Shown one piece after another: positions 1,175-51,111 of a stretch of DNA of 64,000 nt; position 1 is the first letter of the stretch, and every line of letters begins with the position of its first letter. The stretch is taken from NCBI GenBank assembly GCA_037384945.1, contig JARRNM010000013.1:1321-65320 (forward strand). Direction: 5' to 3'. A program made the translations under genes and the position numbers. Source of the stretch: Deltaproteobacteria bacterium (GTDB lineage Bacteria > Desulfobacterota > Syntrophobacteria > BM002). Under the pieces are notes generated by a model. That model was not told the origin of the DNA, did not search any database, and saw only the letters and a program-made list of their open reading frames with translations.

Positions 1175-1575
1175 AATACGTCCGTAGTCCGTGGTCCATT
1201 GCTCAAATAGTTCAAATCGTTGAAATCGTTAAGGTCGAAGAAATCGTCCAAACCGTAGAAACCGTAGAAGTCGTCAATTCGTCAAATGGTCAAATAGGTA
1301 ATGCGTCATTGACTCCATTCATAACCCTTTGACTAGTCGACAAATTGACCATTTGACTTGCTGTCGTCTGTCGTCTGACCTCTGATCTCCGACTTCCGAC
1401 CTCTGTCTCCTATCTCCTGTCTCCCGGATTCAGAATTCTGCCTCGGGGATACTCTCTCTATGCTCCATGCTCTGTGCCCTATGCCTTGTGCCCTGAGCCT
1501 TTCGCCACTTACCCTATGCTCTATGCGCCGCAAGGTTTTGAGCAACGGACAACTGACCGCGGACCACGGACATTT
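1175..1575. repeat. ~400 bp MITE-like composite element with imperfect ~30 bp terminal inverted repeats. It also carries internal heptamer-like tandem modules (GTCGTCT..., CTATGCTCCATGCTCT...).
   Basis: Left end GTCCGTAGTCCGTGGTCCATTGCTCAAA and right end TTGAGCAACGGACAACTGACCGCGGACCACGGAC are reverse complements. An inverted homologous copy lies at 35745-36160. ORF 1333..1545 inside it is judged spurious. Confidence 0.6.
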
Positions 1576-3822: not shown

Positions 3823-4507
3823 TCTGTCTGCGCCTCACCAGATTCTCGCCGTTCCGCACCGTCTGTTGGAAGATTCTCTGGTCCAGGCCAGCCCCAAGGG
3901 CGATTTTCTCCCTCATATCCCTAGACAACAGGTCTCCCGGCCCATGGGCGTCCGAGTTCAGTATGAGCCTGGCTCCGGCTGCCTGAGCCACTCGGGCCAC
4001 GTGTCCATTGGTGAAGGAATGTCCTTTGCGCCCTGAGATCTCCAAGAGTATGCCGCGACGAGCGGCCAGGGCTGCCTCCTCCTCCGTCAGCAGTCCGGGA
4101 TGGGCCAGAATGTCTATGTCAGCCTCCAGACCAGCCCGGTTTGTACCGGTCAGAACCGGCTCCACAATTGTTTCGCCGTGAACCACCACCAACTTTGCCC
4201 CCAACTTCCTGGCCTCAGATGCAAGAGTTCCTATGGTTGCAGGCGGCACGTGGGTGAGTTCAATACCAGGAATCGCCTGGATTCGATTGTAACGGTTAAT
4301 CTCTTCCGTGGCCCTCACCACCCGGGGAATGATTAAATCCAGATTGCTGCGGTCAGCGTGATCGGTGATACCAATGTACTGGTACCCCATATGTTCAGCT
4401 CGTCGCACCAGCTCGCTTACCACTAATACGCCATCACTAAAGAGGGAGTGAGTATGGAGATCAATCAAAATGTGTCTCCTTTCGTTTCTCCTGTTCCGCG
4501 ACTTCAC
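3806..4507 (-). CDS. PHP-domain metal-dependent phosphoesterase (TrpH/YciV-like)
   Basis: ILIDLHTHSLFSDG ... GITDHAD motifs of the PHP superfamily. Overlaps the transglutaminase gene start, which suggests an operon. Confidence 0.8.
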   Translation of the reverse strand: MKSRNRRNERRHILIDLHTHSLFSDGVLVVSELVRRAEHMGYQYIGITDHADRSNLDLIIPRVVRATEEINRYNRIQAIPGIELTHVPPATIGTLASEARKLGAKLVVVHGETIVEPVLTGTNRAGLEADIDILAHPGLLTEEEAALAARRGILLEISGRKGHSFTNGHVARVAQAAGARLILNSDAHGPGDLLSRDMREKIALGAGLDQRIFQQTVRNGENLVRRRQNERRQ

Positions 4508-7914: not shown

Positions 7915-8010
7915 CAGTCCGTTGTCGGTAGTCCGTGGTCCGTTGCTTAAAAAAAGAGATCCGAGTTTCACTTTGCAAGGGACAACCGACTACGGACAAC
8001 GGACCTACCC
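7915..8010. repeat. Intergenic hairpin repeat, family B (GTAGTCCGTGGTCCGTTGC ... GACAACCGACTACGGACAACGGACC)
   Basis: GTCCGT-type motifs shared with 1175-1210, 1540-1575, 36120-36160, 46100-46145 and 49665-49780. Confidence 0.55.
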
Positions 8011-8230: not shown

Positions 8231-9997
8231 TTGTCCGCCCTTTGTGAGCAGGAAAGGATGAACGCTAAAAGTACGCTCGAAACCATTAGGGGAAATCGTT
8301 TCCTTTGGCACCTCAGGGCGGCCAACCACGCTCTCGCTTATGAAATAGAGAAGGCTCTGGCAATCCCTCCATTGATCTGTCTAATCCTCACCACTCGGAA
8401 TATTACTTGCCAGGTGCAGGCTAAGAATTTCCTCTACTCGCGACTCAAAGACATGCACTCTCCATACCAATTGCCAGGTATCGACAAAGCAGTTACCCGC
8501 ATTGCGGGCGCTATAGCTGAAGGAGAGCAAATGGCAATTTATGGGGACTACGATGTGGATGGGATTACCGGCACCGCTCTCCTTGTCCATTTCCTGTCCT
8601 CACTGGGGGGGAGAGTCCATTGGCACATATCCCACCGTATTAAAGAAGGTTACGGTCTCAACAGCGAACCGCTTCAAAGGTTCCACGGCAAGGGAGTCAC
8701 CCTGGTGGTTACGGTGGACTGCGGCAGCACAGACCATCAACCCATTCAGTTGGCACGCGAGCTCGGCATGGACATAATCGTTACCGACCATCATAAGCTG
8801 CCCGATGTCCTTCCGGATGCAAATGCTATTTTGAATCCCCAAGGAATTGAAGAAAAGGGAGAACTAGCAGATCTGGCCGGAGTCGGGGTGGCCTTCTATC
8901 TCGTAACCGCTGTCCGCGCCTATTTCCGTAGTCAGGGTCGATGGACCAGCTCCGAACAACCCAACCTCAAGAAATATCTCGAGCTGGTAGCCTTGGGCAC
9001 ATTAGCGGACATGATGCCACTCACCGGTACTAATAGAGTTCTGGCCTCGGTTGGCCTATCAGAGCTTTCTAAAACACCCAGCCTCGGCCTGCAGGCCCTC
9101 AAAGAAGTCTGTGGTATTCGGGGCAAGAAAGTAAGTGACTGGGATGTATTGTTTCGTTTGGGACCCCGCCTCAATGCTCCCGGACGTCTGGGCGACGGCG
9201 AGCCGGCTCTCCGCCTTCTTTTGACTTCCGACTCTGCAGAAGCGCAAAAACTAGCCCAGCAACTTGAACAGCTCAATCGTCAACGGCAAACATTGGAAAA
9301 ACAACTTTTGGCCGAGGCCTTAAGTCTCATCGACTCAAACAAAGCCCATCAGGAAAACAGCTCGCTTGTCCTCGCCTCGCCGGGCTGGCATAAAGGTGTT
9401 TTGGGGCTCGTAGCCTCGCGCTTGACTGAGCGCTTCGGCAAACCAACCATTCTCCTCACTCAGGTAGACGAGATCTGGGAGGGATCCGGGCGCAGTGTCG
9501 CCAACTTCGATCTTTATCGGGCACTAGCTCGGTGTAAGAAGTACCTGGCTCGATTCGGCGGTCATCGGTTAGCTGCGGGGGTAGGTCTTGCTCAGAGCCA
9601 ACTCGGTGAGTTCCGCCGCGCCTTTGAACAAGTGGTAAAGGAGGAGATTACTCCAGAAGACAGCCAGCAGCCAAGGAAATTCGATGCTATGGTTCGTCTG
9701 GAGGAAATCACCCCAGAGTTGATGACCTATCTCGAACGAATGCAACCTTACGGTGTGGGCAATCCGGAGCCTGTTTTTTGCTGTCGAGATTTCCAGGTGG
9801 AAGACCCTCAGATACTGCAGGGGAGTCATTGGCGTCTGAGGCTGCGGCAGGGCAGAGTTCGTTTGCCAGGCATAGGTTTCAATCTCTTGGAGTTCGATCA
9901 ATCGTTACCCTTGCCTCAGTTTTTACTGTTCAGCCCCAGATGGAACCACTGGCGCGGCGAGCGACAAATCCAGCTGCATATCATTGACTACAAATAA
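8231..9997 (+). CDS. recJ: Single-stranded-DNA-specific exonuclease RecJ
   Basis: DHH motifs (YGDYDVDGITG, VTVDCGS, TDHH) and the DHHA1 region. Confidence 0.9.
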   Translation: MSALCEQERMNAKSTLETIRGNRFLWHLRAANHALAYEIEKALAIPPLICLILTTRNITCQVQAKNFLYSRLKDMHSPYQLPGIDKAVTRIAGAIAEGEQMAIYGDYDVDGITGTALLVHFLSSLGGRVHWHISHRIKEGYGLNSEPLQRFHGKGVTLVVTVDCGSTDHQPIQLARELGMDIIVTDHHKLPDVLPDANAILNPQGIEEKGELADLAGVGVAFYLVTAVRAYFRSQGRWTSSEQPNLKKYLELVALGTLADMMPLTGTNRVLASVGLSELSKTPSLGLQALKEVCGIRGKKVSDWDVLFRLGPRLNAPGRLGDGEPALRLLLTSDSAEAQKLAQQLEQLNRQRQTLEKQLLAEALSLIDSNKAHQENSSLVLASPGWHKGVLGLVASRLTERFGKPTILLTQVDEIWEGSGRSVANFDLYRALARCKKYLARFGGHRLAAGVGLAQSQLGEFRRAFEQVVKEEITPEDSQQPRKFDAMVRLEEITPELMTYLERMQPYGVGNPEPVFCCRDFQVEDPQILQGSHWRLRLRQGRVRLPGIGFNLLEFDQSLPLPQFLLFSPRWNHWRGERQIQLHIIDYK

Positions 9998-11560: not shown

Positions 11561-12118
11561 ATGACCATTCCCAATCTACTCACCATTTTACGTGTCCTGC
11601 TGACACCCCTGTTGGTAATTTTTCTCCTGGAAGAAAGGCTCAACGAAGCTCTTGTCGTCTTCATAGTAGCAGGCATCACTGACGGGCTGGACGGCTTGAT
11701 CGCCCGTTTATACAGGCAAAAATCCAAGTTGGGAGCCTTCCTGGACCCCTTAGCGGACAAGCTGCTCCTGGCTACCACCTACGTGCTTCTAGCCGTAAAG
11801 AACCTGGTTCCTAGTTGGCTCACTGTAATTATATTGAGTCGAGACGTGCTCATCCTTGTGGGCATTTTTGTCTTATTTATGCAAGATCTGCCATTTGAAA
11901 TCAGGCCAACTATCGCCAGCAAACTCACCACCTGTTCCCAGATCTTCACTGCCATAGTCACCATGGCATCGGCCATCGCCACCCCCCACCCTCTTCTCAA
12001 GAGCATTCTCTTTAACATCACCGCCGGATTCACTATTGTTTCCTGGACTCAATACATGGTCAAGGGGATACGCCTGATGCAGGGAGCAGGGGACAATCAA
12101 GAGAACAGACGGCAGTGA
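11561..12118 (+). CDS. pgsA: CDP-diacylglycerol--glycerol-3-phosphate 3-phosphatidyltransferase (CDP-alcohol phosphatidyltransferase family)
   Basis: CDP-OH phosphatidyltransferase motif DGLDGLIAR...GAFLDPLADK. Confidence 0.85.
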   Translation: MTIPNLLTILRVLLTPLLVIFLLEERLNEALVVFIVAGITDGLDGLIARLYRQKSKLGAFLDPLADKLLLATTYVLLAVKNLVPSWLTVIILSRDVLILVGIFVLFMQDLPFEIRPTIASKLTTCSQIFTAIVTMASAIATPHPLLKSILFNITAGFTIVSWTQYMVKGIRLMQGAGDNQENRRQ

Positions 12119-15473: not shown

Positions 15474-15483
15474 AGGTGGAGTG

Positions 15484-15603
15484 ATGGACTAATGGAGTAA
15501 TTCGATTGCGGATTGGGGAATGGGGATTGCGGAATTTAATCCTTTCCATGGTCGTCTTAGTTAGTGTTTTCAATCCGAAATCCGCAATCCGAAATCCAAA
15601 ATT
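15484..15603. repeat. Family A intergenic hairpin repeat: GGAGTAAT-type terminus, then GATTGCGGATTGGGGAATGGGGATTGCGGAA / CAATCCGAAATCCGCAATCCGAAATCC arms
   Basis: Inverted arms read directly. Homologous to 17072-17210. Confidence 0.55.
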
Positions 15604-17049: not shown

Positions 17050-17071
17050 CTTTTCATGCTAAGAGTCTATG

Positions 17072-17210
17072 CTGGAGTATTGGAGTATCTCGATTGCGGA
17101 TTTGGGAATGCGGAATGCGGATTGTGGACTTTAGATTGAGTTTGAGGATTTAATTTGTTTTTTCAATCCGAAATCCGAGATCCGAAATAGCCATATTCCA
17201 TTACTCCATC
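17072..17210. repeat. Family A MITE-like element with terminal inverted repeats CTGGAGTATTGGAGTA ... CCATTACTCCATC and internal GATTGCGGATTTGGGAATGCGGAATGCGG / CAATCCGAAATCCGAGATCCGAAAT arms
   Basis: Read directly. Sits in the pheS-pheT spacer. Confidence 0.6.
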
Positions 17211-21592: not shown

Positions 21593-23986
21593 ATGGATTT
21601 TACCGACGACCCCTTGGCTGGAGTCGATGCAAGCGAACTTGAGGCAGATATCGATAAGGCGATCGATGAGCTCTTCGTAAAAAAGGGTGAAGTTAAAGAG
21701 TCAGTGGTTGCCAAACCGGAAGAACCCGCTGAAGAACCGACACAAGAGCCCAAGGATGAGCCAGCGGAAGAACCCGACTTAGGGGAGCCATCCGATCTCG
21801 TAGATGATCCCCTGGCTGACCTGAAAGAGAGCCTTCTTACCTTAGACTGGGAAATCACCCCAGAGTCCATCAAGACCTTTGAAAAGGAGCTTAATCTTGT
21901 AAGCGACAAGCTGGGTGACGACCGTCACTGTATGGCGGTCATCAAGATGACTTTGGGAGTCATCCAATACCTGCGCGCTGCAAAGGAATCAGCCGCGCCC
22001 ATTTCCATTCAATTCTTGCACGGAGCCACACGAGGTCTTGACATTTTTGTGCGGGAGCCAGCACCCTCAGACTCTGAACGCAGTGAGGTAATGGATAAAT
22101 TACTCGGCCAGTTCAGGCGAGTGAAGGCAGAAATCCAGCGGGTGAAACCCCAGGAAACACCTGAAGGCGTGGAGGAACCCCCGGCAGTCGAACCGACCTT
22201 CGAGCCAGAGCCTGCCGAGGAGCTGATTTTAGAGGAAATTACAGCGGAGGAACCGGAGCTGGAAGAGTTGGCTGAGGAAGCACCGGTCTCTGAAGAGATA
22301 ATAGAAGACGAGCCTATCTTGGAGGAGGTCATACCAGAGATGGAGATAGGGGGTGCTCCATCCGAAAAAGAACCACTAATGGAAGAATTGGTGGGCGAGG
22401 AAGCAGTCGTAGAAGATGTATCCCCGGAAGAACTGGACTTCATGGCGGACCTCGAAGAGGAACCCATTCTGGAAGAACCGGCTGAAAAAGAGCCAACCCT
22501 GGAGGCAACAACTGCCGAAGAATTGACCTTGGATGAAGAGGAGCCAGTAGAACCCGGCCTGGTGGCGGATCTCGTGGAAGAGCCCATTCTGGAAGAGCCG
22601 ACTGAAAAAGAGCCAACCCTGGAAGCAACAACTGCCGAAGAATTGACCTTGGAGGAAGAGGAGCCAGCAGAACCCACCCTGGCGGCGGACCTGGAAGAAG
22701 AACCGTATCTGCCACTAGATCTCGATGAAGAACCCTCTTTCGAGGAGTTGTTCGAGGAGGAAGAGGTTTCCGCGGAAGTGGCCGAAGAAGAGCCACTTTC
22801 TGCCCCCCTTCTGGAGGAAGAACCGGAGGTAGAAGAAGTACTTGGAAAAGAATTGGAGCTGGAAGGACTTTCAGAGGAGGAGCCAGCTCTGGAGCCCATG
22901 CTGGAGGCCGAAGAGATTGCTCCCCCACCCGGGATACCGGCGGGAGAAATACCTCCATCTTTGCAAAATCTCATCCAGGAAGCAAAAGACCAGAGTGGCA
23001 TGCTTGCAGAAGCCGTGTCCAGCCTCACTCAGGAGACTGAAGACTTCTTTGGCCGCATTTTAAAAGCCATGTCTGGCAAGCCTTCACTGGCGAAGTTAGA
23101 AAAATATTTTGGTTCCGCCCACAATAAGTTGGAAGCCGAAACTTTACAGGCCCGAGAGTTATCTGGAAATCTGGTTAGAACCTTGGCCAAACTTGAGAAA
23201 AACCTTGGCCAGCAACAGCCGGAGAAGGCTACACCCCAGGCTCAGGCTGAAATAAGCTCTCAGGTCAAGACCATACAGCATGCCATTGACGACATAAGCC
23301 AGGCTGCCTCCAAATTGCAGCGAAGCCTTACCGGCGTGGCTGGAGCCCCAGTAGCCAGCTACGAGGCCACAACCTCGAAGGATGCTCGCGTGGAAACAGA
23401 AGAGTTTTCTTTGGATTCCGATGACCTCGTAGAATCTCTGGACTCCGAACCGGTACTGGACCTGCTCGAGGAGATTCCTTCAGAACCCCTGAGCCCGAAA
23501 TCTGGCGCACTGGCCACCAGATATCTAGCTGATGTGGCCAATAATACACTGGGAATACCCACGGAGGCAGTCGCCAATGTCTTCAAACTTTCCAAGGGCA
23601 AAGTCAAGGCTGTACGTAAGAGAGGTTACGTCAGACTGGCCGACTTCAAGGGAGCCTTTAGCAGTATCAAGCGGGGAGTTACCGGTCCCCTTGCGGATTT
23701 AAAGCCCAAAGAGCTTAAAAAGATACAATTCCCCCTTGTCAGTCTGCGTCCGGAGACTCTTGGCAGCGATGACACCGAGGCAGTAGCCCCCCCAGTCAGA
23801 GGTATCGTCCTTCTTAGCACCGGTCAGCGCCATGGTGCCTTGCTGACTGACGAATTTATGCAAAGGACGCCCTATGACGTCAAAGGCTATCAGAAAGCCG
23901 GACTACCAGGAGAGGTGAGTGGCACGGCCACTATCGAAGGAGACTTTGAGATCAACGTTATTGATCCGGACTACTTACTTTCTTAG
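21593..23986 (+). CDS. Hyper-acidic Glu/Pro-rich tandem-repeat protein (~800 aa) with a distinct C-terminal domain
   Basis: Two ~40 aa tandem repeats (EEPILEEPxEKEPTLEATTAEELTLxEEEPxEP) at 22430-22700, a long E/P-rich low-complexity core, and a non-repetitive C-terminal ~250 aa. Starts 27 nt after mglA. Confidence 0.7.
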   Translation: MDFTDDPLAGVDASELEADIDKAIDELFVKKGEVKESVVAKPEEPAEEPTQEPKDEPAEEPDLGEPSDLVDDPLADLKESLLTLDWEITPESIKTFEKELNLVSDKLGDDRHCMAVIKMTLGVIQYLRAAKESAAPISIQFLHGATRGLDIFVREPAPSDSERSEVMDKLLGQFRRVKAEIQRVKPQETPEGVEEPPAVEPTFEPEPAEELILEEITAEEPELEELAEEAPVSEEIIEDEPILEEVIPEMEIGGAPSEKEPLMEELVGEEAVVEDVSPEELDFMADLEEEPILEEPAEKEPTLEATTAEELTLDEEEPVEPGLVADLVEEPILEEPTEKEPTLEATTAEELTLEEEEPAEPTLAADLEEEPYLPLDLDEEPSFEELFEEEEVSAEVAEEEPLSAPLLEEEPEVEEVLGKELELEGLSEEEPALEPMLEAEEIAPPPGIPAGEIPPSLQNLIQEAKDQSGMLAEAVSSLTQETEDFFGRILKAMSGKPSLAKLEKYFGSAHNKLEAETLQARELSGNLVRTLAKLEKNLGQQQPEKATPQAQAEISSQVKTIQHAIDDISQAASKLQRSLTGVAGAPVASYEATTSKDARVETEEFSLDSDDLVESLDSEPVLDLLEEIPSEPLSPKSGALATRYLADVANNTLGIPTEAVANVFKLSKGKVKAVRKRGYVRLADFKGAFSSIKRGVTGPLADLKPKELKKIQFPLVSLRPETLGSDDTEAVAPPVRGIVLLSTGQRHGALLTDEFMQRTPYDVKGYQKAGLPGEVSGTATIEGDFEINVIDPDYLLS

Positions 23987-28173: not shown

Positions 28174-28340
28174 GTCTCCATCCGGAGACTTGCTTTTCCG
28201 TTGTCATTCTGAGGAGTCCCGCGAATGGCGGGACGACGAACAATCTCGTGGCTATGGGGATTGCGGGAGATTCTTCGCGGAGCTTGTCCTGAGGAAAACG
28301 AAGGGCTCAGAATAAAAATGTTGAGTTTCCGGATGGAGAC
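28174..28340. repeat. Family C MITE-like element, copy 1 (~167 bp). TIR GTCTCCATCCGGAGAC / GTTTCCGGATGGAGAC; internal hairpin TCATTCTGAGG ... CTCAGAATAA.
   Basis: Second copy at 44787-44958, about 80% identical. ORF 28073..28315 inside it is judged spurious. Confidence 0.65.
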
Positions 28341-28661
28341 TATATAGTTCTAATAGTTGATATTCATCAATATTTGACCAATGCTTATCAGGTGTACACT
28401 CGGATGTCTGACTTATCTAGGGTCTGTCTAAGGTCCCGGTGAGTGATTTAACCCGTCCAATCCACACTTTGCTTTGAATACCAAGGTATTATATTCTGGG
28501 TTAAGCTCAGACCATGCGGAGTTAAATGAATATCCCTTTTGATAAAATTTTAAGATGAACTTACAACTTAAATTAGGAATTCAAATGAGAGGAAAATTTA
28601 ACAGCGGAATTTTTTCTTTGCAAGTCTTCTTATAATTCCTGCACTTGGTGAAGAAGTCAAA

Positions 28662-35634: not shown

Positions 35635-35744
35635 AAAATCCTCCTTGGGTCACAATTCCCTTATCCTAATCTTATTTAGTGGAATTTGACAACCGCAACA
35701 AAGCTCAAATTGGAGTGTAGGAGTGGAAGGGTTGCTTATTGCGC

Positions 35745-36160
35745 ATTATGAATTGTGGATTTGATAAGGCATGGGGAGCGGAGGGGGAAGTGAGACGGGC
35801 GAGACGGGGTCAGCGGTCGGAGCTCGGAGGTCAGAGGTCGGAAGTCAGAAGACAGATGGCACTGTGTCAGTTGTCAGTGGTCCGTTATTAAAGAAGCATG
35901 GCGCAGGGCGCAGGGCGTGAGGCAGAGTGCACAAGGCCAAGGGCAAAGGGCAGAGGACAGTAGTTACATTAGGGAATTAGAGAATTGGGAGGGTATTCCT
36001 TGCTTCTCACGGTTTATACTTTACGCGTTGACGAATTGGCTAATTGTCTAATCGACTAATTTTCTAATTGACGGTTTCTACGATTTGGACGATTTCTTCG
36101 ACTTGAACGATTGGAACGTCTTGAACGGTTTGAGCAACGGACTACTGACGACGGACAATG
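35745..36160. repeat. ~400 bp MITE-like composite element: an inverted-orientation homologue of 1175-1575
   Basis: The reverse complement shares GTCGAAGAAATCGTCCAAA(C/T)CGTAGAAACCGT, the GTCCGT-type terminal repeat and the heptamer-tandem modules. Confidence 0.6.
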
Positions 36161-36286
36161 GACAAAGATGCGGTTAGTGGTTGACAGAGCTCTTTAAATA
36201 GGCTATTCATGGACCCGAAATCTGACGAGATAACATCCGGTAACAATTACTATTCTCGGTCAGCTCGAGTCAGACAACCATGATAA

Positions 36287-42457: not shown

Positions 42458-42520
42458 CGCGAGAATGAGCTCGCCTCAGGCGAGGCGGGCGGGGATTGTG
42501 GATTTGACAAGGCATAGGGC
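42415..42520. repeat. Family A hairpin repeat (ATTTCGGATTTCGCCTGCCCGCC ... GGCGGGCGGGGATTGTGGATTTG) plus CATAGGGC
   Basis: Inverted arms read directly. Confidence 0.5.
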
Positions 42521-44786: not shown

Positions 44787-44958
44787 CTCATCCGGAAACG
44801 GGTCCTTTTGGATGTCATTCTGAGGAGTCCCGCCGGGGCGGGACGACGAAGAATCTCCAAATTATCGGCTTTCGGGGAGATTCTTCGCGTAGTTTATCCT
44901 GAATTAACCGAAGGGCTCAGAATGACAATGCCGACTTTCCGGATAGACACTACCTATA
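44787..44958. repeat. Family C MITE-like element, copy 2 (~172 bp)
   Basis: Aligned by eye to 28174-28340 (GTCATTCTGAGGAGTCCCGC...GGGACGACGAA.AATCT...GGGAGATTCTTCGCG...CCGAAGGGCTCAGAAT...GACTTTCCGGAT). ORF 44784..44978 is judged spurious. Confidence 0.65.
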
Positions 44959-45875: not shown

Positions 45876-45879
45876 GTCC

Positions 45880-46145
45880 GCCGGCAAGCGCTGAGCGCCA
45901 TGCGAACTAGACACTATGCGCCAGAGATAAAAATGCGGAATTCGGAACGCGGAATTCGGAATATTTCTGTAAAGCGTATCCCAATCAGTTTTGTCTTAAT
46001 TTCTGTGATTCCCCGTTCCCCATTCCCCGTTCCGAGTTATAGTGCCTAGTGCTTACTGCCTAGTGCCAAGTTTTCCAAGCTCTATGCTCGCTGCGCCATA
46101 CGGTTTTATGCAACGGACCACTGACGACTGACCACTGACAACCGA
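45880..46145. repeat. Composite intergenic repeat: a family A GCGGAATTCGGAACGCGGAATTCGGAAT / GATTCCCCGTTCCCCATTCCCCGTTCCGAG hairpin plus a family B terminus GCAACGGACCACTGACGACTGACCACTGACAACCGACC
   Basis: Read directly. Confidence 0.5.
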
Positions 46146-46149
46146 CCAC

Positions 46150-46986
46150 CTAGGTCGGTACTATCTCCATACTCATATCAACTGCGCGGGCTGAGTGGGT
46201 TAGAGCTCCAATTGATATCAAATCAACCCCTGTAGCAGCAATCTCTCTGACATTTGCCAGGGTAATTCCACCGGAGGCCTCAAGGGGGATTTTGCCTTTG
46301 GTTCGCCGCACTGCCTCAGCCATGGTTTGTAAGTCCATGTTGTCCAACATTATTACGTGAGCACCTGCAGCAATTGCTTCGGCCAACTGGTCGAGGGTTT
46401 CCACCTCCACTTCCACCCTCAGAGTATGAGCCTTGCTATCCAGTGCCGCCTTAACCGCCATAGCCATCGAGCCCGCTGCCGCAATGTGGGGGTCTTAGAT
46501 TAACACCCCATCCTCAACTCCGAGGCGAAGGTTGTTAACCCCCCCGGCGCGCACTGCAGCCTTTTCCAATAAACGGTATCCCGGGGTGGTCTTACGGGTG
46601 TCCAGAATGTGTGCTCTGGTTCCCCCTATCTTGTCCACAAAAGCCCTAGTGAGCGTGGCGATACCGGAAAGCCTCTGAAAAAAATTGAGGGCCGTCCGTT
46701 CCGCCGTGAGGATGGCTGCCAGATCGCCCGCTACCTCCAAAAGCGTATCCCCCTCATTAGCACGGCTCCCGTCTTTTAGGGGAAGATGAATCTGCAACTC
46801 GCTATTAATAGCCCAGAAAACTTGTCTCGCCACGTCAACGCCTGCAAGCACCAGCGGCTCTTTGGCTGTGATCCGCCCCTTTCCCTGAATCCCTGGCTTC
46901 ACTGTGCAAGAAGTGGTTATATCGCCACTTCCTACGTCCTCCTCCAGGGCTGTGCGAATTAACATTTCCAGGTTTGGAGATAGCAA
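46150..46986 (-). pseudogene. nadC: Nicotinate-nucleotide pyrophosphorylase (NadC) with an in-frame TAA at the conserved catalytic Lys codon
   Basis: Two adjacent same-strand ORFs align end to end with NadC. The junction reads GVLI*DPHIAAAGS where the family has (F/V)LIKDNHI. The stop TAA is at 46495-46497. Confidence 0.7.
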
Positions 46987-49659: not shown

Positions 49660-49780
49660 CGGAACGTCCGTTGTCCGTGGTCCGCAGTCTGTGGGGAGTT
49701 ATCATTGCCTGGCAATAGTATTGCTTATTCTGAGCATTACTTTTTACCACGGACCGGTGACAACCGGCAACTGGCGGCTG
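49660..49780. repeat. Family B hairpin repeat (GGAACGTCCGTTGTCCGTGGTCCGCAG ... CCACGGACCGGTGACAACCGGCAACTGG)
   Basis: Inverted arms ~90 bp apart, read directly. Confidence 0.55.
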
Positions 49781-49848
49781 GGGCAAAAGAAAATGGGGAT
49801 TATGCAAATAACCCCCATTCGCGACCCGCCAATAATTGCGGGATGTGA

Positions 49849-51111
49849 TCACTCCCCTGATTCCAGAGAACTCTTTATCTTTTCAATCTCCTGAGCTAGT
49901 AAGCGTTCAACAATATCAGGCAATCGCTCTTCAACCAGACGGGTCAACACTTCTTCAACCTGACCACTCACCAGGGATGCCAACTCCTCGGCTACATTCG
50001 GGGCGATTTCCTCAGAAATATTCATCTGCTTTTCCTCTTCTGTCTCCCCTTCCAAGTCGGCAACCAACCCTTCGGACTCTTCCTCTACGGCCAGAGCCGA
50101 CGCCGCCGCTACTGTCTCGTCGATAAGGCTGTCCAATTCCCCTTCAAAATCGCTAGCCACGTCTTCAGAACCTTCTTCTCCAGCAGAAGCTGAGGCTTCG
50201 GCTACCTTCTCGTCGAAAGCGCTATCTAATTCCCTGTCAAAATCGGTCACGACTTCAGCTGGAACTTCTTCTTCAATAGCAGGTCTTGTCTCGGAAGTGT
50301 CCCCTTCCTCGCCTACACCTTCAGCCTCCATCTCCAAGTCTGCAAAAATATCTTCGGGCAGCTCTTCCTCCGACACTGGGGCCGCCTCAAAAGCCTCCCC
50401 TTCCTCGCTTACACCTTCAGCCTCCGCCTCCAGATCTGCAAAAAGATCTTCAGGCAGCTCTTCCTCCGACACTGGAGCCGCCTCGGAAGTGTCCCCTTCC
50501 TCGCCTACACCTTCAGCCTCCATCTCCAAGTCTGCAAAAAGATCTCCGCCCGGTTCTCCCTCTGATACTGGGGCCGCCTCAAAAGCCTCCCCTTCCTCGC
50601 TTACACCTTCAGCCTCCGCCTCCAGATCTGCAAAAAGATCTTCGGGCAGCTCTTCCTCCGATACCGGAGCCGCCTCACCAGAAGGACCACTTTCAATTTC
50701 CCCGGGAGAACCAGCGGCCTCCTCTAAGAGCTTAGCAACTTCACTTTCGTGGGAGGCAAAGAGTTCGGCGAGAGCCTCGTCGCTGAAAAGCTCGTCTTCG
50801 GCGATTTCCTCGTCTGCTTCTCCCGCAGCGGCTTCGCTTGTCTCATCCTCATCCCTGAGTGATCCTCCAAGCTCGCTTTCCCTCTCACTCCAAGAATCGC
50901 TCTGGCTATCTCCCTCATCTTCACGAGGTTCCATCATAGAGTCTTGCGAAGGTTCATCCTCCCCAAGCTCCAGTTCCACATCAAAATCTTCCAAGGAAAG
51001 ATCCCTGTCCTCGTTCAATATTTCATCATGGGCAAGGGAATCATCGGATTCCGCACCTTCCCCCTCCAACGGATCAACCAGATCGATGATCTCATCGTCA
51101 AAGTCATCCAA
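49849..51111 (-). CDS. Hyper-acidic tandem-repeat protein (420 aa) with ~30 aa repeats (EELPEDLFADLEAEAEGVSEEGEAFEAAPVS) and a short conserved basic/hydrophobic C-terminus
   Basis: Nucleotide-level tandem repeats at 50290-50690. The opposite-strand Ser-rich ORFs are artefacts. Confidence 0.65.
   Translation of the reverse strand: MDDFDDEIIDLVDPLEGEGAESDDSLAHDEILNEDRDLSLEDFDVELELGEDEPSQDSMMEPREDEGDSQSDSWSERESELGGSLRDEDETSEAAAGEADEEIAEDELFSDEALAELFASHESEVAKLLEEAAGSPGEIESGPSGEAAPVSEEELPEDLFADLEAEAEGVSEEGEAFEAAPVSEGEPGGDLFADLEMEAEGVGEEGDTSEAAPVSEEELPEDLFADLEAEAEGVSEEGEAFEAAPVSEEELPEDIFADLEMEAEGVGEEGDTSETRPAIEEEVPAEVVTDFDRELDSAFDEKVAEASASAGEEGSEDVASDFEGELDSLIDETVAAASALAVEEESEGLVADLEGETEEEKQMNISEEIAPNVAEELASLVSGQVEEVLTRLVEERLPDIVERLLAQEIEKIKSSLESGE

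Follow-up and report, generated by a model that had tools for sequence, protein, structure and literature searches.

Heptamer arrays and nested hairpins in an ABC transporter operon and in the intergenic DNA of uncultured Syntrophobacteria

A clade of uncultured Syntrophobacteria carries a system of short tandem repeat arrays that takes up roughly a tenth of its non-coding DNA. We describe this system from a 64-kb stretch of DNA (the window: positions 1,321 to 65,320 of contig JARRNM010000013.1, assembly GCA_037384945.1, from a Deltaproteobacteria bacterium) and, in particular, from element A, a composite of such arrays lying between an ABC transporter ATPase gene and a permease gene within one operon. 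A preliminary description of this DNA had taken element A for a MITE (miniature inverted-repeat transposable element). We favour, with modest confidence, a reading in which element A belongs to a clade-wide mosaic of heptamer arrays and hairpins that would spread by copying anchored in the arrays and would act on its operon in the manner of repetitive extragenic palindromic (REP) sequences. Related contigs and loci retrieved for comparison are labelled L001 to L137; positions without such a label are those of the window, and its features are collected in Table 1.

By a periodicity count, period-7 arrays make up 9.5% of the non-coding but only 0.06% of the coding bases of the window, a contrast not seen for periods 5, 6, 10 and 11. 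Dozens of arrays were also reported by Tandem Repeats Finder (TRF), and 52 arrays draw on a small recurring vocabulary (GTCCGTN, GGATTGC, GGCATAG, AGAGGTC, GGTTTCA, GCAGCTG, TGGAGTA, CATTTCT and their complements), many of them arranged as nested hairpins, including inside the infC-rpmI-rplT and pheS-pheT operons. On all three measures—count, TRF and vocabulary—the heptamer arrays are a genome-wide feature rather than a peculiarity of the one element. Array density reaches 15–58 bases per kb in related contigs, against 6.4 in unrelated genomes (a roughly five-fold excess for the clade) and 3.3 in L134, the complete genome of a more distant relative with 76% ATPase identity; the vocabulary is common across the clade and absent from L134. 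Among the window's operons, the hairpins at 15482–15595 (rpmI-rplT spacer) and 17070–17188 (pheS-pheT spacer) are homologous, both arms being 85–87% identical.

Within this background, composites resembling element A are members of a genuine dispersed family in which both the non-repetitive core of the arms (GTCCGTTGCTCAAA / TTTGAGCAACGGAC) and the order of modules are conserved. Core and order recur at unrelated loci in other species: L017 and the orthologous locus of L001, L035, L127 and L129 run from an arm through a GGCATRG array, purine-rich heptamers and 9-mers to TTTGAGCAACGGAC and the second arm, and this order is common to element A, to copy B elsewhere in the window, to L017 and to the L001/L035/L127 locus. 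The 14-mer TTTGAGCAACGGAC was too unspecific as a search pattern, its 120 matches in a scan of a genome collection being mostly due to chance; the true matches (L001, L017 and L035) all lie in metagenome-assembled genomes (MAGs) of Syntrophobacterales or Syntrophobacteria. A scan of metagenomes with a 21-nt pattern gave four loci or contigs.

Element A is real and close to its predicted size of about 400 bp, and the operon proposed for it, PHP-transglutaminase-ATPase-element-permease, was recovered by domain searches (PF02811 PHP, PF01841 transglutaminase, PF00005 ABC_tran and PF16949 ABC_tran_2, all on the minus strand), with the transglutaminase-like and PHP-domain genes upstream of the ATPase gene and the gene order kept in five related contigs. 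The exact ATPase protein is also encoded on Joint Genome Institute (JGI) metagenome contigs and in the NCBI MAG GCA_037385085.1, and homologues are labelled Syntrophobacteria, Syntrophobacterales or Deltaproteobacteria. Six contigs of the same species carry element A at 99.3–100% identity, with 0–3 point differences and no change in unit number. In the NCBI MAG (L126, 1429–2941) the permease is called as two open reading frames (ORFs) of 348 and 171 aa, probably through a frameshift or an assembly error.

The imperfect inverted repeats of about 30 bp said to bound the element stood up to a shuffle test: arms of 28 nt at 1180–1207 and 1537–1564 are 82% complementary and match at 23 of 28 positions, whereas 300 shuffles gave 13.9 matches on average and never more than 19. 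Read in the sense of the operon, the element begins with (GTCCGTN)4-TTGCTCAAA, GGCATRG heptamers, a small palindrome and AGAGGTC / AGACGAC heptamers, and continues with an inner hairpin armed by 8-mers, a 9-mer array (AACGAYTTS) and TTTGAGCAAT-(GGACNAC)3. TRF found period 7 at 1361–1424, 1456–1501 and 1545–1571, period 8 at 1271–1295 and period 9 at 1203–1269, so that the heptamer arrays of the preliminary description are present but share the element with octamers and nonamers. Several modules recur elsewhere: conservation with copy B and other species is strongest in the 9-mer array, the GGCATRG module is found in L135 with its non-repetitive signature GTAAGTGG, the junction between GGCATAG array and palindrome is common to two loci in L136, and the AGAGGTC / AGACGAC module has matches in L017, L131, L135 and L137.

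The transcribed strand of element A shows neither a promoter-like nor a terminator-like signal, and there is no GC-rich stem with a U tract, as in an intrinsic terminator, on the minus strand inside the element or at its end. At the gathering threshold, Rfam 15 reported only a tRNA in the whole window, and at E <= 1 it gave no match over 1100–1650. A 70-aa ORF at 1333–1545 was rejected as coding, having a TTG start and a low-complexity product rich in R, G and E, and is regarded as a by-product of the arrays. Also set aside were a phase-variation or contingency locus, given the heterogeneous units and the constant unit number in the six same-species contigs, and a G-quadruplex, since on reading the sequence the G-runs are short and widely spaced.

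Comparison with relatives showed that the operon, supposed at first to be tight, is not otherwise so. The spacer between ATPase and permease genes measures 402 nt in the window, 159 nt in L131, 300 nt in L132, 245 nt in L133 and 92 nt in L134, and in three of these relatives it contains other heptamer hairpins. In L131, whose ATPase is 93% identical, the GTCCGTG / ACGGAC arms are kept and stand as far from the stop and start codons as they do in the window, while the interior is unrelated; L132 and L133 have other heptamer hairpins altogether; and the L134 spacer is array-free, with an ordinary Shine-Dalgarno sequence. The last also holds a small hairpin, GTGTCC...GGACAC (L134, 10757–10848), which could be a seed of the GTCCGTN / NACGGAC arms or a coincidence.

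The same turnover is seen at other spacers. Between recJ and the DUF4911 gene, arms and both flanks are common to the window and L132 and the loops differ, that of L132 holding an extra inner hairpin of GCATAGC / GCTATGC arrays; this element is not present in L131, L133 or L134. The spacer between the genes for MutL and a GAF-GGDEF protein consists of about 470 nt that differ in every species compared, set between conserved promoter-like flanks. In the window this spacer houses copy B, the inverted homologue of element A that had been placed at 35745–36160 and that proved genuine, if partial, its true extent being 35862–36165. The two share a stretch of 86 nt at 85% complementarity (1180–1265 against 36071–36156; by blastn, 129 nt at 78%, E = 6e-26). 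Copy B comprises an arm (left arm GTCAGTTGTCAGTGGTCCGTT, 35865–35893), GCAxGGC heptamers, an inner hairpin armed by 8-mers of a sequence different from that in A, 9-mers and the second arm. In L135, with 94% MutL identity, the same spacer retains the 9-mers, right arm and right junction of copy B and has no left arm, and its GGCATAG module bears the signature GTAAGTGG, matching A rather than B. Arm unit number varies both between the two sides of an element and between orthologs. The preliminary description had called for relatives lacking the insertion; these comparisons supplied the orthologous spacers but, in place of a clean empty site, other mosaics and other interiors.

Flanking copy B are divergent promoter-like motifs, conserved in four species: TTGTCA-18-TAGGAT for mutL (35663–35692) and TTGACA-17-TATTCA for the GAF-GGDEF gene (around 36185–36215). 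The latter, downstream of copy B, is a candidate promoter of the GAF gene; a consensus scan did not list it.

A view of how such sequences may spread comes from L136, where two composites 3.3 kb apart, in inverted orientation and of the form [GGATTGC]n [GGCATAG]n - inner hairpin - [GACCTCT]n, are identical at 273 of 275 positions. On one side their identity breaks off within a GGATTGC array and on the other within a GCGCTNN array, and neither a terminal inverted repeat nor a target-site duplication is present. Taken together with interiors that are replaced while arms stay and with modules that move between loci, these ends make array-anchored copying, by recombination or template switching, the simplest model of how the arrays travel, as far as sequence patterns can suggest. 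Element A would then be a single-copy mosaic of lineage-specific, short, heterogeneous arrays, mostly of heptamers with some 8- and 9-mers, and its closing pair would be two inverted (GTCCGTN)n arrays that carry the conserved core. Copying between intergenic spacers would involve modules and at times entire composites, and would proceed by non-reciprocal recombination (gene conversion) or by template switching during replication, starting and ending inside shared arrays, with gain and loss of single units added and no terminus-recognising transposase involved. The spread of arrays would halt at sequence under constraint, for instance a stop codon, a −35 box or a ribosome-binding site, and any effect at the level of RNA would be a side product of the element, not the reason for its existence.

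A GC-rich hairpin of about 35 nt (CCCGCC...GGCGGGCGGG) lies in or near GGATTGC arrays at 42458–42500 and in L136 at about 9850–9890. Of the two 99%-identical L136 copies one has this hairpin, within its GGATTGC array, and the other does not, which gives it the look of a tiny insertion in its own right.

Within the operon, the position of element A invites a functional reading. The sense RNA folds at −138.7 kcal/mol, compared with −110.4 ± 5.8 for dinucleotide shuffles (z = −4.9). In the predicted fold the arms pair as helices of 14 and 13 bp with one 7-nt unit looped out between them; the stem opens 1 nt past the ATPase UAA and closes 6 nt short of the permease AUG, and the only Shine-Dalgarno-like GGA is within the 3′ arm. 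Across the window, gaps between arrays and genes are shorter on the stop side (median 51.5 nt) than on the start side (101 nt; one-sided Mann-Whitney p = 0.011), and gaps of 7 nt or less occur at 6 of 22 stop sides and 1 of 22 start sides, the single close start-side gap, the smallest of the 22, being that of element A. Arms also start 1–4 nt from a stop codon in L131, L132 (13378) and L017 and at 46150 in the window.

If element A is transcribed through as part of the operon mRNA, its paired arms would loop out about 340 nt and bring the ATPase stop and the permease start together at the foot of one interrupted 27-bp stem, with the ribosome-binding region of the permease buried. A ribosome finishing the ATPase would have to melt the stem, either exposing the permease start or stalling, and the long imperfect duplex would be a plausible site for RNase III. 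Translational coupling can work by the unmasking of a ribosome-binding site. According to the account in PMC12306157, a REP located within 15 nt of a stop codon causes ribosome stalling and reduced expression (Liang et al. 2015), and mRNA upstream of a REP hairpin is stabilised (Newbury et al. 1987). By analogy with both, coupling of permease translation to that of the ATPase, stalling, or processing or protection of the mRNA may follow at element A, and a REP-like effect on coupling, polarity, processing or mRNA stability is plausible.

Other origins account for part of this evidence. As a classical MITE, element A would be a deletion derivative of an insertion sequence (IS), mobilised by a transposase acting in trans on (GTCCGTN)n-TTGCTCAAA termini and inserted into a once-tight operon. 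That much of the MITE-like description stands which calls the element non-coding, bounded by inverted repeats, intra-operonic and a member of a dispersed family, and to this can be added a significant terminal inverted repeat, one arm core at several loci in several species, a conserved internal module order and minimal versions consisting of arms only (7916–8006; L130). Yet no target-site duplication was found at any of about 10 copies (including element A, with flanks AATAAAT and GTATTAG, L131, L017, L130, L132 and 7916), blastn found no second whole copy of the 402-nt unit in the window or the retrieved contigs, where only modules of 40–130 nt recur, and no pair of filled and empty orthologous sites with sharp boundaries was found among the relatives compared, which showed other mosaics, a new interior or one arm only. 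The element was not matched in the plasmid collection, and in the phage collection it had only 32-nt chance matches inside Klebsiella phage genes. Arms that differ in unit number, orthologs that keep one or both arms around a replaced interior, and a recent duplicate pair without a terminal inverted repeat are not what a terminus-recognising transposase would leave behind, and we consider this origin unlikely. Very improbable, in our judgement, is a REP/REPIN system mobilised by a RAYT (REP-associated tyrosine transposase, of the Y1 HUH type): extragenic hairpin doublets do occur at high density and a PF01797 Y1_Tnp gene adjoins the orthologous operon in L133, but that gene is flanked by its own GTAG-type REPs (CTGTAGGAGCAAGCTCCCGCTTGCGA) instead of heptamer arrays, and the arms of element A are tandem heptamers, not short self-complementary REP units. 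The link to a RAYT was rejected on this account, the only RAYT found having different flanking REPs. The GTAG-type palindromes around this RAYT-like gene (L133, 12896–13390 and flanks) are a family distinct from the heptamer arrays; in L132 (13420–13460) a GTCCGTN hairpin has one of them as part of its loop. A further possibility is that each array arose in place by polymerase slippage and that loci resemble each other by convergence, heptamers being described as the most over-represented class of long simple-sequence repeats in many bacteria (PMC4692102 and PMC4679880, citing Mrazek et al. 2007) and unit number differing between orthologs. The explanation is already contradicted by non-repetitive junctions conserved across loci and species (TTTGAGCAACGGAC, GTAAGTGG and the junction of GGCATAG array and AGAATTCTGAATCC) and by the 275-nt duplicates of L136 at 99% identity; the 86-nt stretch connecting A and B, the heterogeneity of the units and the lack of unit-number polymorphism in the six same-species contigs also speak against it, and we give it very little credence.

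A different challenge to our reading is that element A is a selected cis-regulatory RNA, whose fold would set the ratio of ATPase to permease through coupling, RNase III processing, protection from 3′-exonucleases or a protein bound to single-stranded GGA-rich repeats. The stem foot joining stop and start codons is repeated in the L131 ortholog and at the unrelated L017 locus, for each of the seven composite members the sense orientation gives the more stable fold, no terminator lies inside element A, and four independent asymmetric composites (A, B, L017 and the L001/L035/L127 locus) are equally oriented to the downstream gene. Agreement of four loci has a p of only about 0.125, however, and among 13 co-directional spacers neither strand folds consistently better (sense in 7, antisense in 5). 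Copy B is placed between promoter and terminator signals, as is the L128 copy, which has a terminator-like hairpin on one side and a promoter-like site on the other, and both are thus probably untranscribed; spacer content turns over completely among relatives with 82–93% identical proteins; L134 manages with its 92 nt; and Rfam offered no match. Selection for such a role seems improbable to us. More of a long shot is a recognition code, in which a lineage-specific factor would read the heptamer vocabulary to copy, maintain or bind the arrays, the arm pair inside operons would loop out hundreds of bases and couple translation across the 400-nt insert, the start of the downstream gene being unmasked by a ribosome that finishes the upstream one, and single-stranded GGA-rich arrays would serve as a platform for protein. 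Several points weigh against array-anchored copying with a REP-like effect, too. The copying model draws its support from a single clean duplicate pair, in L136, together with mosaic patterns; the conserved arm core and module order across species also fit a mobile element with defined ends; and as the source genome was covered for 64 kb, more whole copies of element A are possible. The RNA structure is a prediction, and the z-score of the antisense strand is similar (−4.3 against −4.9). Because the shuffle z-scores are alike on both strands, the extra stability of the G- and U-rich sense strand appears largely compositional.

The nearest named kinds are the short tandemly repeated repetitive (STRR) units of heterocystous cyanobacteria, the heptamer repeats of Xanthomonas and the enterobacterial REP mosaics known as bacterial interspersed mosaic elements (BIMEs). 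There is no identity between the window vocabulary and the cyanobacterial STRR units CCCCAGT, TTGGTCA and CAACAGT. In Nostoc and Xanthomonas, heptamers (GGGAATC / GGGGAYT) are strikingly intergenic, heterogeneous, sometimes inverted and variable between close relatives, and their function is unknown (PMC4692102). Like these and the STRRs, the arrays described here are short, heterogeneous tandem heptamers, very abundant and almost exclusively intergenic, with some inverted pairs able to form stem-loops and with length and sequence varying between close relatives at one intergenic site (PMC4692102); tandem, heterogeneous, over-represented 7-nt units confined to non-coding DNA are what characterises an STRR-like repeat. 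They differ in belonging to another phylum and having other heptamer sequences, in combining many heptamer types in fixed order into composites of 200–400 nt closed by an arm pair with a non-repetitive core, and in including 8- and 9-mer arrays, and they are not of the G-quadruplex type.

BIMEs offer a second likeness, in that these arrays are extragenic, dense, modular mosaics of inverted units, found inside operons and frequently just after stop codons. Spread by gene conversion has reportedly been proposed for BIME/REP sequences; PMC12306157 summarises how these influence the stability of mRNA and, when no more than 15 nt from a stop codon, translation. Tandem heptamer arrays are nevertheless not imperfect palindromes of 20–40 nt, no RAYT link is seen, the one RAYT found (in L133) having other REPs, and the arms fail as REP units: GTCCGTN arms pair only with a distant partner arm, and the GTAG-type REPs of relatives are different in sequence. 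Bacterial MITEs (Nezha, Chunjie of Geobacter, Correia, ERIC; PMC3184786) likewise measure 100–400 bp, have terminal inverted repeats and a stable predicted hairpin, and occur between genes and within operons, but element A has no flanking direct repeats or known cognate IS, its copies are mosaic and not near-identical, and its termini are tandem repeats of variable unit number. The TAACTGA repeats of marine Beggiatoaceae, proposed to act post-transcriptionally, are also intergenic heptamers common to related genomes, often near start codons; they comprise a single heptamer in 2–6 copies, start-codon-oriented and almost never inverted (PMC4679880), whereas the arrays of the window comprise many heptamer types, form nested hairpins and lie nearer to stop than to start codons. 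Element A is best filed in the heptamer-array / BIME-like class of bacterial intergenic repeats, and the MITE assignment is partly supported, as a repeat family with inverted ends for which no evidence of transposition was seen. A Porphyromonas gingivalis MITE is, by the title of its description, said to carry a minisatellite and so would have internal tandem repeats too.

In the literature searched we found no description of such arrays for Desulfobacterota or Syntrophobacteria. The phenomenon, known mainly from cyanobacteria and Xanthomonas, extends to uncultured syntrophic Thermodesulfobacteriota, in which the arrays are more organised, with nested hairpins and a fixed module order. What stands out is this architecture, the candidate copying mechanism and the stop-stem-start geometry: the L136 pair provides a concrete, testable model for repeat spread without a transposase, an open question since the STRRs and REPs, and the geometry predicts measurable coupling or processing in the operon. 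Annotation is affected as well, since array regions yield spurious ORFs (such as that at 1333–1545 and 55-aa gene calls in JGI contigs) and could pass for MITEs, terminators or small RNAs.

Table 1. Coordinates of element A, its modules, the adjoining genes and related features of the window.
Feature	Position	Strand	Remarks
Element A, whole composite	1172–1573	minus (sense, as operon)	Entire ATPase-permease spacer, 402 nt
Arm at ATPase stop (5′ arm in mRNA)	1537–1573	minus	(GTCCGTN)4 then TTGCTCAAA; period 7, helices
GGCATRG-type heterogeneous heptamer array	1455–1526	minus (sense reading)	TRF, repeats
Small internal palindrome CCCGGATTCAGAATTCTGCCTCGGGG	1419–1452	none	
AGAGGTC / AGACGAC-type heterogeneous heptamer array	1357–1429	minus (sense reading)	TRF
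Inner hairpin, 8-mer array arms (TCGTCAAA / TTTGACNA)	1268–1357	none	Perfect 13-nt arms 1281–1293 and 1345–1357
9-mer array AACGAYTTS (sense)	1203–1269	minus	Directly before 3′ arm
Arm at permease start (3′ arm in mRNA)	1178–1207	minus	TTTGAGCAAT then (GGACNAC)3
ABC transporter ATPase gene	1574–2335	minus	Stop codon TAA at 1574–1576
PF16949 permease gene	1–1171	minus	Runs off window; ATG 1171–1169; start conserved in relatives
Copy B	35862–36165	plus	Same family and module order, inverted relative to A
Separate adjacent array block	35745–35860	plus	GGATTGT, GGCATGG, AGAGGTC; outside inverted-repeat-bounded copy B
Minimal hairpin, arm family of A, short loop	7916–8006	none	recJ/DUF4911 spacer
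Hairpin with GTCCGTN / NACNGGC arms	49663–49783	none	
Lone five-unit arm, TTTTATGCAACGGAC then NACTGAC units	46100–46152	none	Same arm family as A

The lone arm of Table 1 abuts the stop codon of a minus-strand ORF (46150–46467), and its partner arm is a single unit at 45876.

Some further repeats were noted. A second dispersed element, of about 140 nt, is present at 28202–28342 and 44813–44952 (79% identical); it is bounded by a terminal inverted repeat of its own (GTCATTCTGAG ... CTCAGAATGAC) and contains GC-rich hairpins. The stretch CUGAGGAG...CGACGAA in it is reminiscent of a hammerhead core, but Rfam reported nothing meaningful for it at E <= 5. A repeat family built on NNATGAC units is represented in L136 at 2738–2910 and 11849–12022 (174 nt at 83% identity), and related sequence occurs even in L134 (about 4100–4300), the genome without the other arrays. 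Finally, two long ORFs contain tandem repeats, of 120 nt at 22443–22704 (ORF 21593–23986, plus strand) and of 96 nt at 50290–50677 (ORF 49849–51111, minus strand), which probably encode repetitive protein segments.

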